Shown piece after piece: positions 5,544-28,665 of a stretch of 64,000 nucleotides of DNA (position 1 is the stretch's first letter; each line of letters starts with the position of its first letter). Where the stretch lies: the IMG/VR virus record IMGVR_UViG_3300026549_002494, positions 72,468 through 136,467 of that record; one strand, 5' to 3'. Source of the DNA: a virus. Its lineage: Duplodnaviria > Heunggongvirae > Uroviricota > Caudoviricetes. The notes below the pieces were generated by a model that saw only the letters and a program-made list of their open reading frames with translations, was not told the DNA's origin and did no database searches. The translations under genes were made by a program, and so were the position numbers.

Positions 5544-6041
5544 ATGAAAGTAAATGAATTCACGGTAATTCTTAATGAACAAAATAATCCAGAATTAAAA
5601 TGTATTCATCAATATAAATGGGAAATTCCCTTATGGGAAGATGTGTTTGATGATATTGTATGGTATGAAAGTTTAGTTAAAGAGTTAAATAATACATTTT
5701 TTCTGGATATTGTCGCCGAAGAATACGCATATATTGTTGCATTAAACAATGCAAGTGAAATAGTCGGGATATACCAATTATCTCACGGAACTTGTAGTGA
5801 AACATATAGCAGGAATAAAGAGTTAGTAACATTTTTATTATTATCTGGGGCAGAACAGTTTATTCATATACACAACCATCCCGGCGAAAGTGATATTATC
5901 GAGAGCGAAGGTGATAAGGGCGTAAGAGCAAACATTGAGGTGGCTGCTAAGATTTTTAATATACAATACAAAGAGAGTATTATTATTGGAAAACATACAT
6001 TCGGATTAAGCAAACGCTATTATCAAAGCGACAAAATGTAA
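5544..6041 (+). CDS. RadC-like JAB/MPN domain protein
   Basis: HNHPgeSdi-iESegD matches the RadC JAB signature HNHPSG...PS..D. AAAGGAG RBS. Confidence 0.45.
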   Translation: MKVNEFTVILNEQNNPELKCIHQYKWEIPLWEDVFDDIVWYESLVKELNNTFFLDIVAEEYAYIVALNNASEIVGIYQLSHGTCSETYSRNKELVTFLLLSGAEQFIHIHNHPGESDIIESEGDKGVRANIEVAAKIFNIQYKESIIIGKHTFGLSKRYYQSDKM

Positions 6042-6051
6042 TAAGGGGGTT

Positions 6052-7062
6052 ATGAAAATGTCTGGAAGAATTGAACATCGGTTAAAGACAGAACAAACAA
6101 TTAGTAGACTTTTAAATAATATGCCAGAATGTATGGTAGAATATTATTATAATTTATCATCAAAGAGAGAGATAAAAACTTGCGAAGAATATATTAGAAA
6201 GGTGAGAAAATTTTTATTGTACGTAAATTCAGATCCCATTCAAATTGATTGGCGACAAATAAATGAAACAGATATAGCAAAATATTTTAAACATATTGAA
6301 ACTAAAATAATGAAAGATGGGAAAATGGCTAATACGAGTTTTTCTTTTAGAAAAGAAAATTATACAGCCTTGAATAGTTTTTTTAAATATTTATATAAAA
6401 AAGGATATATACCCCATAACCCTGTGGAATTTATTGATCGTCCAACTAAAAAAGATTCTGTTAGTAGAAAATTTATGACAGAAGATGATTTATCAAAAAT
6501 AATCAAAACAGTTAAATGCGGAGCTGGCTCAAGTCGTGCGATTGCAAGGCAAGACAATTGGTGGACAAGGGATTTAGCAATTATTTTAATGTTTATAACA
6601 ACCGGAATGCGTAAAACTGCCTTATCAGAAATTGATATTAATGATATTAATTTTACCACAAATGAGATTCGTGTAGTAGACAAAGAACACGAAACTCATA
6701 CATTTAATATGCCTAATATTCTAACAGATGCTTTGATAGATTGGATGTACCAAAGAGAAAAAATATTGCAAGGAACAGATGTTGCTCCACTGTTTATATC
6801 CAATCGTTTAAAAAGAATGTCTCCTGACAGTATATCATTATTAGTAAAGAAATATACAATAGAAGCATTAGGTGAACCCTTTTCACCACATAAAATCAGA
6901 GCGGCTTTTGCAAATATTATGTTAGAACATACAGGGAATATAAAGATTGTAGCGGATGCATTAAGACATAAACAGATAGAAACAACTAAAATATATCTTA
7001 ACAATGATGAAAAGAAAGTCAATAAAAAGACAGTGGATATAATGAATAGTATTTTTAAGTGA
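6052..7062 (+). CDS. int: tyrosine recombinase / phage integrase
   Basis: Catalytic-domain motifs: GMRKTAL (Arg), HKIRAAF (H-x-x-R), ALRHKQIETTKIYL (terminal Tyr). N-terminal SAM-like domain. Confidence 0.8.
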   Translation: MKMSGRIEHRLKTEQTISRLLNNMPECMVEYYYNLSSKREIKTCEEYIRKVRKFLLYVNSDPIQIDWRQINETDIAKYFKHIETKIMKDGKMANTSFSFRKENYTALNSFFKYLYKKGYIPHNPVEFIDRPTKKDSVSRKFMTEDDLSKIIKTVKCGAGSSRAIARQDNWWTRDLAIILMFITTGMRKTALSEIDINDINFTTNEIRVVDKEHETHTFNMPNILTDALIDWMYQREKILQGTDVAPLFISNRLKRMSPDSISLLVKKYTIEALGEPFSPHKIRAAFANIMLEHTGNIKIVADALRHKQIETTKIYLNNDEKKVNKKTVDIMNSIFK

Positions 7063-7110
7063 TTAGGTTTGACTTTTAATTAATTTAATTTAGTTTTTTG
7101 ATTAAAATAA

Positions 7111-7139
7111 TTGACAAAATAATAAATATAGTATATAAT
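7111..7139 (+). promoter_or_regulatory. perfect sigma-70 consensus promoter TTGACA-N17-TATAAT
   Basis: TTGACA at 7111-7116, 17-nt spacer, TATAAT at 7134-7139. Confidence 0.6.
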
Positions 7140-7145
7140 AAAAGA

Positions 7146-7232
7146 CGAATAGGGGATCAATAGACGATTGATTTCCCTCTGTGATAATTAAAAGACTAAC
7201 CACACATTGGGAAGGGCGGTTAGTCTTTTTTT
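7146..7232 (+). ncRNA. candidate ~85-nt small RNA (consensus promoter, two hairpins, intrinsic terminator)
   Basis: Sits between the promoter above and a 10-bp stem terminator aagactaacc/ggttagtctt plus T7 at 7191-7232. Internal hairpin GGGATCAAT/ATTGATTTCCC. No ORF with RBS. Confidence 0.4.
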
Positions 7233-7507
7233 GTTATTAAAAATTTGATAACAAATGCCAATGATTGCAAATATCAAACTTGTATATAAGAACAAATTTT
7301 CATATGTAACCATAACATTCCCCCTCTCCGAGGGAAAAAATTCAACGTGATTCCTTATTCGTCCTTTATTATTATATATCTAAAAGCTGTTTTGTCAAGA
7401 AATATTAAATTTGACATTATATCTATTGAATATCAGTCAAATATATGATAAAATGTATACAAATAAGTGAACCCTTATAAATAATATAAAAAAAGGAGTA
7501 AATTAAA

Positions 7508-7921
7508 ATGAAGTACACAATCTATGAAAGCTCAGAGGAATTTGAGAAGAAAGATTTCGACAAAATCGAAGCAGGCTGCACATACAATTCCGAAACTGCT
7601 ACTGCTACGGTCGTCAAAATATTTGATGACAAGGAAGGCGCATTGGAAGCGTTGAGCAAAAAGGCAACGTCAGTGAGGAAGTTCGGCAAAATCATCTGCG
7701 TAATTGAATACTATGTTCTGCCCGAGGAAAAAGATGAGTACGGGGACGACATCGAATTTTACGACCCGATTGCGTTTTCAGAAATGCAGATACCCGTCAG
7801 AATTGCACCGGGATACGAAAACGCATACGAAGATGTTGCCACATTTGATAATTATGCAGATGCCGCCGCAAAGGTTGACAGTCTGTTAGACGAAGATATT
7901 GACGCATATATAGCTATATAA
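7508..7921 (+). CDS. highly acidic small protein (possible DNA-mimic / anti-restriction candidate)
   Basis: 137 aa, about 25% D/E. GGAG RBS. Own TTGAAT-17-TAAAAT promoter with TG extension at about 7428-7460. GC content about 42% against a 32% background. Confidence 0.4.
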   Translation: MKYTIYESSEEFEKKDFDKIEAGCTYNSETATATVVKIFDDKEGALEALSKKATSVRKFGKIICVIEYYVLPEEKDEYGDDIEFYDPIAFSEMQIPVRIAPGYENAYEDVATFDNYADAAAKVDSLLDEDIDAYIAI

Positions 7922-7963
7922 AAAAAAGAGGTAATTAAAAATGAAAAAAGTAATTAACGGAAA

Positions 7964-8125
7964 ATGTATAACACAGAAACGGCTAAGTTAATCGCCAGCC
8001 GTGATAACGGTCTCGGCAGCCATGAATTATACTATGTACGTGAAGAATTATACAGAAAAAAGACAGGTGAATATTTTCTGCACGCACTCGGCGGCGCAAT
8101 GTCGGGATATTCTCAAATTGTCTAG
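7964..8125 (+). CDS. possible 53-aa small protein in the GC-rich island
   Basis: ORF MYNTETAKLIASRDNGLGSHELYYVREELYRKKTGEYFLHALGGAMSGYSQIV. Weak RBS. An overlapping 16-aa ORF at 7941 has a better RBS. Confidence 0.2.
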   Translation: MYNTETAKLIASRDNGLGSHELYYVREELYRKKTGEYFLHALGGAMSGYSQIV

Positions 8126-22876: not shown

Positions 22877-25066
22877 ATGAGAGTTTTACTATTATTAAGA
22901 GGTTCTGCCGGTTGTGGCAAATCAACTTGGATAGAACAAAATGGCTTAAAGCCGTACACTTTATCAGCCGATGATATTAGATTATTGTGCCAAAGTCCAC
23001 TTATGCAGGTAGATGGTACTGTCGGTATCAGTCAAGCAAATAATAATGTTACTTGGAAGACACTGTTTACATTGCTTGAAGTCAGAATGCAGAAAGGTGA
23101 GTTTACAGTTATTGATGCTACCAATTCTAAGACTTCTGAAATGAACAGGCATAAAGAGATGTGTAATACATACAGATATAGAATTTACTGTGTGGATTTC
23201 ACAGACATTCCTATTGAAGAGGTTAAGCGTAGAAATGCAAACAGAGAACCTTTAAAGAGAGTGCCTGATGAAGTGATTGACAAAATGTATTCAAGATTTA
23301 AGACACAAAAAATTCCTTCAGGTATTAAAGTTATCAAACCTGATGAACTTGATACAATTTGGATGAAAATGTTTGACTTTTCAGAATATAAAAAGATTCA
23401 TCACATAGGCGATATTCATGGTTGTAACACAGCATTGCAGAAATACCTATCCGATAATGGCGGTATCAAAGATGACGAAATGTATATCTTTACTGGTGAC
23501 TATGTTGATAGAGGTCTTGAAAATGCAGAAGTTGTAAAATTCCTTATCTCTATTTCTGACAGGAAGAATGTTCTCATGCTTGAGGGCAATCACGAAAGAT
23601 GGCTTTGGTTATATGCTAATGATTGTGTTGGTAAATCAAAAGAATTTGAATTAGTTACAAAACCACAGTTAGATGATGCAAAGATTGATAAGAAAGATAT
23701 TAGACAGTTATATAGGAAGTTTGGTCAGTGTGCTTATTACAAGTATGGAGATAATGTTTATCTTGTTACACATGCTGGGTTAAGTACAATGCCTGACAAC
23801 CTATCTTATGTTGCGACAGAACAGATGATTAAAGGTGTAGGTAATTACAACGACTTTGAAAAGATTGCCGAAACCTTTATAAATACCACTTCTGACAACG
23901 TTTATCAAATTCACGGACACAGAAATACAAAAGCACTGCCCGTAAAAGTGAATGACAGGGTTTATAATCTTGAAGGTCGAGTTGAATTTGGCGGTTGTTT
24001 AAGATGTGTACAGGTTGACAAAGACGGCATTCGTACCATCGAGGTTGAAAATGAAGTGTTTAAGACCCCTGAGATGAGAAGCGAACAGACCGTAACAAGT
24101 AGTTCAGTAGCTGATACAATTATAGCACTGCGTTCTAATAAGTACATTCAAGAAAAGAAATTTGGCAATATTTCATCTTTCAATTTTACAAACAAAGCTT
24201 TCTACGATAAGGTTTGGGATGAGCAGACTACAAAAGCAAGAGGTTTGTATATTGATACGAAAAAGGGCAAAGTTGTTGCAAGAGCATATGAGAAGTTCTT
24301 TAATATTAATGAAAGACCTGAAACTAAGTTTGATATGTTGCAATATAAACTTCGGTTCCCAGTAACAGCTTATGTAAAAGAAAATGGTTTCTTAGGTATT
24401 GTAAGTTATAACGAATATGAAGATGATTTGTTTATAGCAAGTAAATCCACCATTGATAGTCAGTTTGCACAGTGGTTCAAAGAGATGTTATATAGTAAGA
24501 TTTCCTCTGATAACATTAGTAAGATGAAGCAGTTTATCAAAGAAAATGACGTATCGTTTGTGTTTGAATGTGTTGATATGAAGAACGATCCTCACATTAT
24601 TGAATATCCAAAGAGCGCATTATTCCTACTTGATATTGTTAAGAACGATATGAATTTCGAGAAGTTTGAATACGAAGCGATGGTTGATATTGCAAATCAG
24701 CTTGGCATTACTCCAAAAGAAAAGGCAATCGAAATTGCTACTTGGCAGGACTTCTTTGATTGGTATTATGACATATTAGAAGAAGACTATGAATACAATG
24801 GACGAAAAATTGAGGGTTTTGTTATTGAAGATAGCGTAGGATATATGACCAAACTCAAGCTTACATACTATAACTTCTGGAAGTTTATGAGAAGTATTTC
24901 TCATGAGGCAATTAAGAATGGCTATATCAAAAAGACATCTGCTTTGACAACTCCGACAGCAAAGGAGTATTATGCATGGGTTAGAAAGCTTCATGACGTA
25001 GAAGATAAAGACAGTTTGCCAAAAGATATTTGTACTTTGAGAAGACTATTCTATAAAGATAGGTGA
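22877..25066 (+). CDS. Pnkp-like trifunctional RNA repair enzyme: polynucleotide 5'-kinase / 2',3'-phosphoesterase / ligase-like adenylyltransferase
   Basis: P-loop LLRGSAGCGKST. Calcineurin-like phosphoesterase motifs GDIHG, GDYVDRG, GNHE. C-terminal nucleotidyltransferase motif I YVKENGFLG (KxNG), as in bacterial Pnkp ligase domains. Confidence 0.7.
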   Translation: MRVLLLLRGSAGCGKSTWIEQNGLKPYTLSADDIRLLCQSPLMQVDGTVGISQANNNVTWKTLFTLLEVRMQKGEFTVIDATNSKTSEMNRHKEMCNTYRYRIYCVDFTDIPIEEVKRRNANREPLKRVPDEVIDKMYSRFKTQKIPSGIKVIKPDELDTIWMKMFDFSEYKKIHHIGDIHGCNTALQKYLSDNGGIKDDEMYIFTGDYVDRGLENAEVVKFLISISDRKNVLMLEGNHERWLWLYANDCVGKSKEFELVTKPQLDDAKIDKKDIRQLYRKFGQCAYYKYGDNVYLVTHAGLSTMPDNLSYVATEQMIKGVGNYNDFEKIAETFINTTSDNVYQIHGHRNTKALPVKVNDRVYNLEGRVEFGGCLRCVQVDKDGIRTIEVENEVFKTPEMRSEQTVTSSSVADTIIALRSNKYIQEKKFGNISSFNFTNKAFYDKVWDEQTTKARGLYIDTKKGKVVARAYEKFFNINERPETKFDMLQYKLRFPVTAYVKENGFLGIVSYNEYEDDLFIASKSTIDSQFAQWFKEMLYSKISSDNISKMKQFIKENDVSFVFECVDMKNDPHIIEYPKSALFLLDIVKNDMNFEKFEYEAMVDIANQLGITPKEKAIEIATWQDFFDWYYDILEEDYEYNGRKIEGFVIEDSVGYMTKLKLTYYNFWKFMRSISHEAIKNGYIKKTSALTTPTAKEYYAWVRKLHDVEDKDSLPKDICTLRRLFYKDR

Positions 25067-26297: not shown

Positions 26298-27329
26298 TTG
26301 ATGAATATTTCTGAAATTAAAGCAGAGATTAAGAAGCCTGAATATGACTTTTTAGAGAAAAATGAGCATTTAGGTAAGAATATTATCCTGCTTGGCTTAG
26401 GTGGCTCTCATGCATACGGCACAAACACAGAAACATCTGATTTGGATATTAGAGGTTGTGCGTTAAATCGTAAGAATGAAATCCTTACAAATGAGAATTT
26501 TGAGCAGTTTGTAAACGAAGAAACCGACACAACAATCTATTCTTTCAACAAACTTATCTCTTTGTTAAGTAACTGTAATCCAAATACGATTGAGATTTTA
26601 GGTTTAAAACCTGAACACTACTTATATTTGTCGCCAATAGGTCAAGAATTACTTGATAAAAGAAAATTATTTTTGTCAAGAAGAGCGGCCCATTCTTTTG
26701 GTGGGTATGCAACCGCACAATTAAGACGGCTCGACAACAAAGCGGCTCGACTTGTAGACCAATCTCAGCAAGAAAAACATATTCTTGGTAGTATTCAAAA
26801 TGCTATGTATGATTATAAACGTAGATACTTTGAATTTGAAGATGATGCTATTAAGTTGTATGTTGATAAAGCAGTTCAAGAAGGATATGATACTGAAATC
26901 TTTATGGATATAAATTTACACCACTATCCGCTTCGTGACTACAAATCTATGTGGTCAGAAATGAATAATGTTATTAAAGATTATTCAAAGATAGGCAAGA
27001 GAAATCAGAATGCTATCGAGCATGGGAAACTTGCAAAACATATGATGCATCTTATTAGGCTTTACATTATGTGTCTTGACATCTTGGAACGAGAAGAAAT
27101 CGTTACTTATAGAGAAAAAGAACACGATTTTCTTATGAGCATCCGAAATGGAGAGTTTTTGGATGATAATAGGCAGCCTATCCCAGAGTTTTTTGAAATG
27201 GTAGATGAGTTTGAAAAGAAACTTGAATATGCAAAAGCAAATACGTCACTAAAAGATAATCCTGATTATAAGGCTATCAATGAATTTGTAATGAGTGTCA
27301 ATGAGAGGGTGGTAAAGGGTGAAGTTTAA
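26298..27329 (+). CDS. Pol-beta superfamily nucleotidyltransferase (predicted RNA-repair-associated NTase)
   Basis: GS...D.D signature LGLGGSHAYGTNTETSDLDIRG. Translationally coupled (overlap) with the CCA-adding enzyme gene. Confidence 0.5.
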   Translation: MMNISEIKAEIKKPEYDFLEKNEHLGKNIILLGLGGSHAYGTNTETSDLDIRGCALNRKNEILTNENFEQFVNEETDTTIYSFNKLISLLSNCNPNTIEILGLKPEHYLYLSPIGQELLDKRKLFLSRRAAHSFGGYATAQLRRLDNKAARLVDQSQQEKHILGSIQNAMYDYKRRYFEFEDDAIKLYVDKAVQEGYDTEIFMDINLHHYPLRDYKSMWSEMNNVIKDYSKIGKRNQNAIEHGKLAKHMMHLIRLYIMCLDILEREEIVTYREKEHDFLMSIRNGEFLDDNRQPIPEFFEMVDEFEKKLEYAKANTSLKDNPDYKAINEFVMSVNERVVKGEV

Positions 27330-28665
27330 TATTAATATTCCTGACGGAGCCAATCTTCTCATTCACGCCCTTCAGGACAACGGATATTCCGCTTATGTTG
27401 TAGGCGGTTGTGTCCGGGATAGTATATTGGGTAGAGAACCACATGACTGGGATATATGCACATCTGCCACTCCTGAGCAAATGCTTGAAGTTTTTAAGGA
27501 TAGACGAGTCATCGAAACCGGATTACAACACGGTACTATTACAGTAGTAGTTGATAAAATTCCATATGAAATTACGACTTATAGAATAGACGGAGATTAT
27601 TCAGACAATCGAAGACCCGATAGTGTAACCTTTACAGATAATCTCATCGAAGATTTGAAACGTAGAGATTTTACTATAAATGCAATAGCTTATAACGATG
27701 CACAAGGTTTGGTTGATCCGTTTCATGGAATTGAAGATATTGAATGTGGGAAGATACAGTGTGTCGGCTCTGCAAAAGAGCGATTTAACGAGGATGCTTT
27801 GAGAATTTTAAGAGCAATTCGATTTGCTTCTCAGCTTGAATTTAGTATTGAGCCGGAAACAGATTGGCAAATTCATCAACTCTATAAAAATTTAGAGAAT
27901 ATATCAGTAGAGAGAATTAACGGTGAATTCTGCAAAATTGCATCGTTTGATAACTTTTGTGTAGAACTCTTGCTTTATAAAGATGTGTTCTCTTTATTTA
28001 TCCCAGAATTAAAAGGCATGATTGATTTTCCTCAAAATAACCCTTGGCACATTTACAATGTGTTTGACCATACGATACACGCTGTTGCCGAATGTGGTTC
28101 AAAGGATTTAATTACAAGACTTGCAGTGTTATTTCACGATTTCGGAAAGCCTCATTCCTATCAGGATGGAGAAGATGGCATTAGACATTTCAAGGGTCAT
28201 GCAAAAGTCAGTGCAGATATGACAGATTCAATCATGAAACGATTGAGATTTGATAACGATACAAGAAACAAGGTTGTTGAGTTGGTACAATATCACGATG
28301 CTACATTTTCAGTCGGTAAGAAATATGTCAAAAAATGGCTTAATAAGATTGGTGAAAAACAGTTTAGGCGATTAATTAAATTAAAAGAGGCAGATAACAA
28401 AGCTCAGAACTTGGAACGTTCCAACGAAAGAATTGGAGAGTTACACGAAATTGAGTCTCTTATAGATGAAGTTTTGAAAGAGCAGGAGTGTTTTTCTCTA
28501 AAGGATTTGGCTGTTAAGGGAGAAGATTTAATCAATATCGGTTATAAACCTGGAAGAGCGTTAGGTGCCGCATTGAGAGGATTGCTTGATTGCGTTATAG
28601 CCGAAGAAGTGGAGAATAATAAAGTAGAGTTATTAAAGTTGGCAAGTAAATGGTTGCCACGATAA
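27319..28665 (+). CDS. cca: tRNA nucleotidyltransferase (CCA-adding enzyme) with HD domain
   Basis: Head-domain motif VVGGCVRDSILGREPHDWDICT. C-terminal HD region VLFHDFGKP. Confidence 0.8.
   Translation: MKFNINIPDGANLLIHALQDNGYSAYVVGGCVRDSILGREPHDWDICTSATPEQMLEVFKDRRVIETGLQHGTITVVVDKIPYEITTYRIDGDYSDNRRPDSVTFTDNLIEDLKRRDFTINAIAYNDAQGLVDPFHGIEDIECGKIQCVGSAKERFNEDALRILRAIRFASQLEFSIEPETDWQIHQLYKNLENISVERINGEFCKIASFDNFCVELLLYKDVFSLFIPELKGMIDFPQNNPWHIYNVFDHTIHAVAECGSKDLITRLAVLFHDFGKPHSYQDGEDGIRHFKGHAKVSADMTDSIMKRLRFDNDTRNKVVELVQYHDATFSVGKKYVKKWLNKIGEKQFRRLIKLKEADNKAQNLERSNERIGELHEIESLIDEVLKEQECFSLKDLAVKGEDLINIGYKPGRALGAALRGLLDCVIAEEVENNKVELLKLASKWLPR

Follow-up and report, generated by a model that had tools for sequence, protein, structure and literature searches.

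What is encoded by the short, seemingly non-coding stretch that follows the integrase gene in the viral record IMGVR_UViG_3300026549_002494 (Caudoviricetes)? The sequence analysed here, henceforth the window, comprises 64,000 nucleotides (nt) of that record (positions 72,468 to 136,467), and all coordinates below count from its first letter. An initial annotation of the letters alone had pointed to a plus-strand unit with a consensus promoter, a hairpin and an intrinsic terminator, flanked by an inverted repeat, and had offered as possibilities a small RNA (sRNA) regulating integration, excision or immunity, an antisense or decoy RNA, or a remnant of an attachment (att) structure. Our analysis indicates that positions 7111-7398 most probably constitute a type I toxin-antitoxin module of the BsrG/SR4 kind (the TxpA/BsrG, Hol_Tox group), in which the plus-strand RNA would act as the antitoxin. 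Thus, the unit is very probably a small non-coding transcription unit, as had been proposed, but a promoter, an open reading frame (ORF) of 41 codons and a hairpin over its Shine-Dalgarno (SD) sequence, all on the minus strand, had been overlooked. Likewise, the antisense option was correct in kind, its target being a convergent small candidate toxin gene that had gone unseen.

The plus-strand unit opens with a promoter (TTGACA-N17-TATAAT, 7111-7139) that, just as described, agrees with the consensus at 12 of 12 positions. Six such perfect promoters are present in the window against 0.18 expected from dinucleotide-preserving shuffles, none of 100 of which reached six. With its start placed from the -10 box, the predicted antitoxin RNA is about 90 nt long (7145-7234, plus strand) and comprises an A-rich leader, a 5' hairpin, a CCCUC box, a spacer and a terminator. 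The 5' hairpin (7152-7178, GGGGAUCAAU-AGACG-AUUGAUUUCCC), which bears the motif AUAGACG of the family described below, accounts for the second hairpin that had been reported between promoter and terminator and that is indeed present at 7153-7177 (GGGATCAAT / ATTGATTTCCC). The unit ends at a central hairpin shared by both strands (7190-7232), with fully complementary arms (7190-7201 and 7218-7229, 100%) and a 16-nt loop; the reported terminator with its T7 run is thus real, with a stem of 12 base pairs (bp) instead of 10. On the plus strand the T7 run at 7226-7232 places a U7 tract after this hairpin, which is the antitoxin terminator, and on the minus-strand reading only UUUUAAUUAU follows it. 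A generic terminator scan, whose loop limit is 8 nt, overlooked it. The 89-nt plus-strand RNA folds with -26.4 kcal/mol (z = -3.3). We found neither a ribosome-binding site (RBS) nor an ORF on the plus-strand transcript, in agreement with the initial annotation, and an Rfam scan at permissive thresholds returned no family and nothing credible for this RNA. As a separate observation, a third, AAAAGTCAAACC-like copy of the terminator-arm sequence is located directly 3' of the integrase stop codon (7066-7082), where it forms a 17-nt inverted repeat (88%) with 7185-7201; in a read-through transcript of either strand it could pair with an arm of the central hairpin.

On the opposite strand, a second promoter (TTGACA-N16-TATAAT, 7398 to 7371, minus strand), again with 12 of 12 consensus positions, converges on the same central hairpin. 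It would drive a toxin mRNA of about 180 nt (short form, 7364-7186, minus strand) if transcription ends at that hairpin. The predicted toxin ORF (7313 to 7188, minus strand) specifies 41 residues (MVTYENLFLYTSLIFAIIGICYQIFNNKKRLTALPNVWLVF), of which 1-29 form the conserved core; residues 7-25 are strongly hydrophobic (grand average of hydropathy, GRAVY, 2.03) and are followed by KKR. The SD sequence (GAGGGGG, 7326-7320) lies about 50 nt 3' of the predicted transcript start, with the ATG 6 nt further on, and is caught in a hairpin (7338-7318, minus strand; UUUUCCCUC-GGAGA-GGGGGAA) with UUCCCUC and GGGGGAA as its arms; sequestration of the SD in a short helix of the toxin mRNA is a trait of bsrG/SR4 that is thus found in the window as well. 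The central hairpin holds codons 29-41 of the ORF together with its stop codon, and two codons for lysine (AAAAAA, 7232-7227) are complementary to the U-tract of the plus strand, such that the charged tail of the peptide and the termination of the antitoxin are encoded by the same bases. If both RNAs end at the central hairpin, they share a perfect 3' overlap of 52 bp (-87.8 kcal/mol). The locus therefore has, at the level of sequence, both general components of a type I system, namely a gene for a small, hydrophobic, membrane-directed peptide and an antisense RNA gene with a promoter and a terminator of its own.

The peptide belongs to a clostridial family. Four relatives (E = 1e-4 to 7e-4) with the common core MVTYExLF...C[YH]xIFxxKK were recovered when 1.8 billion representative proteins were searched exhaustively with HMMER, and identity between the window peptide and its relatives is 41-66%. 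A profile search returned 15 homologous proteins, none of which has a source name or a precomputed Pfam domain. Scanning one genome per species, we found 24 loci, here numbered with the prefix L (L008, L012, L018 and so on), all of them from Clostridia (Lachnospiraceae, Oscillospiraceae, Oribacterium, Bengtsoniella and Ruminococcus), with two or three copies of the peptide in several genomes. Most relatives are 28-30 amino acids long and stop straight after KK(K); the window peptide and those of L008 and L012 extend into the hairpin, and the C-terminal extension of L008 has a PNV motif in common with the window peptide. The link to known toxins is provided by the Pfam model Hol_Tox (PF16935, gathering cut-off 23.3 bits), the family of the Bacillus toxin BsrG. 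It matches 15 of 19 family members, six of them at or over the cut-off (L015, L022, L017, L012, L008 and L018, 23.3-28.5 bits); BsrG itself, whose sequence we checked at 100% identity in phage SPbeta, scores 34.5 bits. The core of the window peptide aligns to positions 1-33 of the 34 in this profile. At full length the window peptide has no Hol_Tox match in Pfam, and its hits against Pfam and NCBIfam are noise (STAR_dimer; SA1362_fam at 16.7 bits, cut-off 42). Other searches were likewise negative: neither a word-index search of proteins with the lone peptide, nor tblastn with it against phages and plasmids, nor scans of IMG/VR with the exact SD-hairpin pattern and with a family pattern gave a match, and "MVTYE" does not occur in the literature searched. 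A metagenome scan with a terminator-loop pattern common to the window and L008 was discarded, its 20 matches being due to chance with neither the RNA nor the peptide.

The mRNA points in the same direction. The Rfam scan that left the plus-strand RNA without a family gave BsrG (RF01412, a type I toxin mRNA) as its best match by E-value on the minus strand (7217-7346, 22.2 bits, E = 0.0041, 701 nt searched), below threshold, with an alignment that extends from the SD hairpin across most of the ORF. The same model matches L018 (33 bits), L012 (31 bits, over its full length, E = 6.7e-6 locally), L008 and L021, all below threshold; scores of the relatives are 23-33 bits as against 210 bits for true bsrG. 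All of these matches lie at the position of the toxin mRNA and on the correct strand. Moreover, in 21 of 23 unique 5' untranslated regions (UTRs) of the family an upstream strand rich in C and U pairs with the SD, and the arms of this hairpin covary: GGGGG is found with CCCCC or UUCCC, GAGGG with CCCUC and GGAGG with UCUCC. The window mRNA is hence best regarded as a distant relative of RF01412 and not as a curated member, and the module as a divergent relative of the TxpA/BsrG family that is linked to it via intermediates, not via curated thresholds.

The antisense RNA is conserved along with the peptide. A convergent promoter on the opposite strand with at least 10 of 12 consensus positions is present in 19 of the 24 loci (in eleven of them with all 12), at a distance of 48-106 nt past the stop codon of the toxin. 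The 20 RNAs that we extracted share one plan (A-rich leader, 5' hairpin, C-rich box, spacer, terminator). All of them fold the 5' hairpin, mostly as CCG-AUAGA-CGG (AUCAAU-AGACG-AUUGAU in the window), and the arms of their terminators (AAUAACCGCC / GGCGGUUAUU) are followed by a U-tract made from the lysine codons of the toxin. A covariance model built from these 20 antitoxin RNAs, R1, finds its sole window copy at 7139-7234 (66.3 bits, E = 1e-11) and has 24 strong matches in the homologous loci; the arrangement of promoter, hairpin and terminator, whose conservation had been proposed as a check, is hence retained in homologues. Five strong or moderate R1 matches lie outside the training set: a second MVTYE ORF lies opposite two of them and another hydrophobic peptide ending in KK opposite a third; one is at a contig edge and one is an orphan. 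In the alignment guided by the model, 92.8% of the cells are paired, as against 35-56% when the partners are slid by 1-3 columns; compensatory changes occur in 8 of 15 pairs, and the observed covariation was reached by none of 500 shuffles. Most of this signal stems from the terminator helix (97% of cells paired, compensatory changes in 6 of 11 pairs), the inner 5' stem being conserved with little variation. RNAalifold, applied to the sequence alignment, missed the 5' hairpin owing to shifts in its register from member to member. Ten sampled ORFs flanking the homologous loci have chromosomal functions (e.g. RsmH/MraW, glycosyl hydrolases, alcohol dehydrogenase and a patatin-like protein) and include no integrase. 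Thus, the RNA recurs with the peptide gene amidst ordinary neighbours, which links it to that gene and not to recombination.

Several loci display variations on this theme. Across the family, the C-terminal lysine codons (AAAAAA or AAGAAA) template the U-tract of the antitoxin terminator. In a Ruminococcus metagenome-assembled genome (L018, 1698-1943), a tandem second module encodes an unrelated peptide (MGVICMAETVVLVLLLVAIAEVIKYIKK) on the same RNA scaffold, with 33 bits for Rfam BsrG and 31.9 bits for the antitoxin model R1; here the coding part of the toxin appears to have been swapped inside a conserved RNA framework. A degenerate toxin copy without an antitoxin (L014, 2610-2702) and an orphan antitoxin gene with a decayed toxin ORF (L019, 2627-2732) attest to turnover of modules within the family.

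The inverted repeat that flanks the plus-strand unit takes on a new meaning in this context. Its two members exist, starting at 7144 (GACGAATAGGG) and 7353 (CCTTATTCGTC) and not at 7143 and 7356, but what had been described as an 11-bp repeat bracketing the unit is really a 25-nt repeat (88% match between arms) composed of the -10 box and the 5' end of each of the two convergent transcripts. The left arm (7135-7159) covers the -10 box and 5' end of the antitoxin and corresponds, on the minus strand, to the putative 3' strand of a helix P1; the right arm (7348-7372) covers the -10 box and 5' end of the toxin mRNA, the putative 5' strand of P1. Each arm begins in the -10 box of one promoter and extends about 20 nt into the transcript, and hence both RNAs start with a near-identical sequence, GACGAAUA(G/A)GG(G/A)AUCA. 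A second inverted repeat joins 7172-7184 and 7325-7337. In all 21 modules compared, the 5' UTR of the toxin and the 5' domain of the antitoxin are homologous from the -10 box on, and the similarity is specific to cognate arms (mean score 30.6 for cognate versus 20.6 for non-cognate pairs). In an end-to-end alignment of Rfam BsrG with L012, the outermost helix of the model joins the 5' end of the mRNA to sequence beyond the central hairpin, and the sequence in L012 that pairs with the toxin 5' end is the antisense of the antitoxin 5' domain. The repeat therefore probably corresponds to the 5'-3' helix P1 of a bsrG-type toxin mRNA, which in bsrG is formed by nt 1-35 and nt 232-262 (PMC3834814).

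Folding of longer transcripts is consistent with such a helix. A putative read-through form of the window's toxin mRNA extending to about 7135 would add the 3' strand of P1, and minimum-free-energy folds of read-through transcripts contain a long 5'-3' helix enclosing the mRNA for the window and for each of seven relatives (8 of 8). In the window fold the P1-like helix pulls the anti-SD strand UUCCCUC off the SD; in the short transcript, by contrast, the SD hairpin is retained. A hairpin that resembles a terminator occurs on the toxin strand immediately beyond the antitoxin gene in 13 of 22 relatives, and in SPbeta the bsrG terminator comes after P1. Transition mismatches between the arms lean toward the G.U type on the toxin strand (47 versus 13), which is weak evidence as two inherited positions dominate the count.

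Taking the anatomy, conservation and covariation observed above together with the published work on bsrG/SR4, we infer the following course of events. In bsrG the stop codon is located in stem-loop SL3, and first contact is made between the terminator loop of SR4 and loop 3; SR4 covers the 3' half of P1, and its binding frees the 5' strand, upon which the SD helix grows from 4 to 8 bp (PMC3834814). By analogy, the minus-strand promoter would yield an mRNA for a 41-residue single-helix membrane peptide with its RBS held in a hairpin, and the plus-strand unit a convergent antisense RNA of about 90 nt, whose terminator hairpin exactly complements the one at the end of the toxin ORF. The two RNAs would meet through these complementary hairpin loops and zip up into a duplex of at least 52 bp, or of the whole antitoxin (about 90 nt) if the toxin mRNA reads through, and this duplex would be a substrate for RNase III. 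In addition, the antitoxin may capture the 3' strand of P1, thereby freeing the anti-SD 5' strand, so that the SD is clamped and translation blocked. Upon loss of the phage, or when transcription of the antitoxin stops, the presumably less stable antitoxin would decay and the peptide be made, with addiction (phage maintenance) or killing of the abortive-infection type as the predicted outcome.

Direct pairing in trans between the antitoxin 5' domain or its CCCUC box and the 5' UTR or SD of the toxin was considered as another route and rejected, being no better than in shuffled sequences; for the 5'-5' duplex between the two RNAs, 51 of 500 shuffles were as good. Cognate pairs do beat non-cognate ones in trans pairing, a difference that is confounded by the relatedness of the loci and better explained by the P1 model.

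Several points weigh against reading the locus as a BsrG/SR4-like module, beginning with the failure of this direct trans pairing. The window core (residues 1-29) reaches only 12.5 bits on Hol_Tox (E = 0.14), below the cut-off; direct profile comparison with BsrG is weak (probability 7.8%); and on Rfam BsrG the window is far under the gathering score (22 versus 55 bits). The 12-residue tail read from the hairpin is unusual, and the ORF could thus be impaired. There is no minus-strand terminator beyond 7140, past the antitoxin gene, in the window; the read-through form needed for P1 is unproven there, and its P1 would have two A.C mismatches. No relatives of the MVTYE type were found in the phage, plasmid or viral-contig (IMG/VR) collections, which makes a phage location unusual for this sub-type in the data searched and leaves a role in phage maintenance as something that we only infer.

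These points bear on three other explanations. The first retains the type I layout and takes the peptide as a small membrane protein, harmless or useful, with a cis-antisense RNA that tunes its level. A precedent is the antisense-paired small protein YhzE-2, which is non-toxic even in its native host (Fozo et al., PMC2887945), and the sub-threshold Hol_Tox score of the window peptide would be in keeping with it. We nevertheless deem it unlikely: relatives of the peptide do pass the cut-off of Hol_Tox, the family of the proven toxin BsrG, and both the double lock of a sequestered SD and an antisense RNA made from a consensus promoter, and the multi-copy spread with orphan antitoxins, are typical of toxins.

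The second explanation posits a decaying, non-functional copy, in which the ORF has lost the stop codon after KK and reads into the hairpin, with the RNA genes as relics. The length of the window peptide relative to most of its relatives, the lack of a minus-strand terminator past the antitoxin gene and the degenerate or orphan copies at L014 and L019 speak for it. With both promoters at 12 of 12 positions, and with an intact ORF core, SD hairpin and antitoxin RNA (66 bits), decay seems very improbable; furthermore, L008 and L012 have similar C-terminal extensions, the former with the PNV motif, which argues that the tail marks a sub-type and is not a lesion. A stand-alone trans-acting sRNA for integration, excision or immunity, or an att or recombination site in the inverted repeat, is suggested solely by the location of the unit 50 nt downstream of the tyrosine recombinase gene (6052-7062) and is exceedingly improbable, as the RNA always accompanies the small ORF (in 24 loci, with no integrase in the sampled flanks), the repeat arms are the -10 boxes and 5' ends of two transcripts, recurring in every module compared and matching P1 of bsrG-type mRNA, and the window has no tRNA gene.

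The type I module, as we prefer to read the locus, sits in a window with a G+C content of 31-36% and nearly all genes on one strand. The product of the recombinase gene matches Pfam Phage_integrase (E = 3.6e-25). The window further encodes a DnaE-type polymerase (52% identity with the enzyme of Clostridium phage c-st, 44-47% with its counterparts in Geobacillus virus E3 and the large Clostridioides phage phiCDIF1296T), a RecD-like helicase and a DNA methyltransferase. The likeness of the polymerase and the gene content indicate that the window is part of a large clostridial phage. A blastn search of 6000-8000 against phages gave no match, and the relatives of the integrase in IMG/VR, only 39% identical over 49 residues, were of no use for synteny. 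The phage c-st and several such phages persist as extrachromosomal prophages, a way of life with which an addiction module beside a tyrosine recombinase would be in keeping.

Elsewhere in the window, a possible second module occupies 10702-11036. Two perfect promoters converge there (10702-10730, plus strand; 11036 to 11008, minus strand), a small minus-strand ORF (10916 to 10800, MKGVLYINFTKFLEVCTIVSSVIDVATLAIDLHDKFKK) has the SD AAAGGAG, and its KFKK codons are placed where the plus-strand RNA reaches a weak hairpin and a U-run; its peptide is less hydrophobic, it has no Rfam match and its fold has a z of only -1.4. Further perfect 12/12 promoters of the sigma-70 type are found at 10619-10647 (minus strand) and 14322-14351 (plus strand), and the phage seems to use strict consensus promoters at few control points. 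A gene for an ImmA/M78-like metalloprotease (11151-11939, minus strand) with a small ORF upstream (11936-12268, minus strand) and a TnpB/IS605 OrfB gene (12444-13601) could make 11151-13601 a repressor/antirepressor region with an inserted transposon-type nuclease. Genes for a GmrSD-type restriction endonuclease (15918-17444), a Pnkp-like kinase-phosphatase-RNA ligase (22877-25066) and a CCA-adding enzyme (27319-28665) plausibly represent an RNA-repair set directed against tRNA-cleaving host defences.

Tentatively, and with less than even confidence, we would go beyond the type I assignment and propose that the antitoxin is a mimic of the 5' end of the toxin mRNA that arose by inverted duplication of the toxin promoter and leader. 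It might act mainly by strand displacement, competing with the toxin 5' end for the 3' strand of P1 and thus releasing the anti-SD to lock translation, and the coupling between the KK codons and the U-tract might keep the pair inseparable. Together with the recombinase, the module could then form a stability cassette for an extrachromosomal c-st-like prophage, combining dimer resolution with post-segregational killing, and the RNA would represent an undescribed antitoxin family widespread in gut and rumen Clostridia. Apart from this proposal, the assignment makes what was an orphan candidate sRNA part of a two-gene module that can be interpreted, and corrects its supposed link to integration. 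A function in addiction or abortive infection, which could affect the stability of lysogens, is suggested for the phage, and the module is perhaps usable for counter-selection, as done in C. difficile; no new principle is involved.

Among known systems, bsrG/SR4 is a close counterpart. Both have a small single-helix peptide with an M-x-x-Y-E-x-L start and a lysine end, both are phage-borne with the SD in a short helix, and in both the stop codon lies at or in a hairpin (SL3 in bsrG, the central hairpin in the window) complementary to the antitoxin terminator, the central hairpin being the equivalent of bsrG SL3 and SR4 SL4. In both, too, the convergent RNAs base-pair through their 3' ends, and the 5' end of the toxin mRNA can pair beyond the hairpin (P1, putative in the window) with a stretch that is covered by the antitoxin. 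The two also differ: the predicted antitoxin is about 90 nt long, whereas SR4 has 183 nt, and shows no detectable sequence similarity to the SR4 region (R1 has no match in L027); the outer limit of P1 is also where its 5' end lies, whereas SR4 extends 60 nt past the toxin mRNA; the window copy is without the dedicated toxin terminator that follows P1 in bsrG; its peptide and mRNA remain below curated thresholds; and its host clade is Clostridia and not Bacilli.

RatA of the B. subtilis skin element has 222 nt, in contrast to the window RNA, and TxpA, at 59 residues, is longer than the window peptide. The window RNA also differs from the txpA/RatA system in having no sequence-level match in Rfam. 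Closer in size is the antisense RNA of EF3263 from Enterococcus faecalis, at about 110 nt versus the roughly 90 nt predicted here (Fozo et al. 2010, PMC2887945). In txpA/RatA and EF3263 the duplex is presumably cleared by RNase III (PMC3531473). Organisation around a 3' overlap is general in these Gram-positive type I families (PMC8594479, PMC2887945).

The par module of the Enterococcus plasmid pAD1 (fst/RNA II), which serves plasmid maintenance, resembles the window in its convergent RNAs, single bidirectional terminator and repeats at both 5' ends. In par, however, these repeats are direct in the DNA, making the RNAs complementary, whereas those of the window are inverted, giving both RNAs the same sequence. 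A par-like reading was rejected on account of this orientation, and the peptide has no Fst-family match in Pfam.

The type I modules of C. difficile prophages (CD0956.2/RCd10 etc.; PMC6563280) share with the window their clostridial hosts, their residence in prophages or phages, and small toxins with a hydrophobic N-terminus and a lysine-rich C-terminus. Their proposed role is to stabilise the mobile element (Soutourina 2019, PMC6563280). Those toxins have no sequence similarity with the TxpA/BsrG family (PMC6563280), whereas the present family belongs with TxpA/BsrG through Hol_Tox. Set beside these systems, the toxin superfamily and the 3'-overlap layout are already described, and the short antitoxin RNA family is one for which Rfam has no model. 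The 24 loci thus add a clostridial branch to the TxpA/BsrG toxin family, and that branch gains an antitoxin RNA of about 90 nt with a working covariance model.

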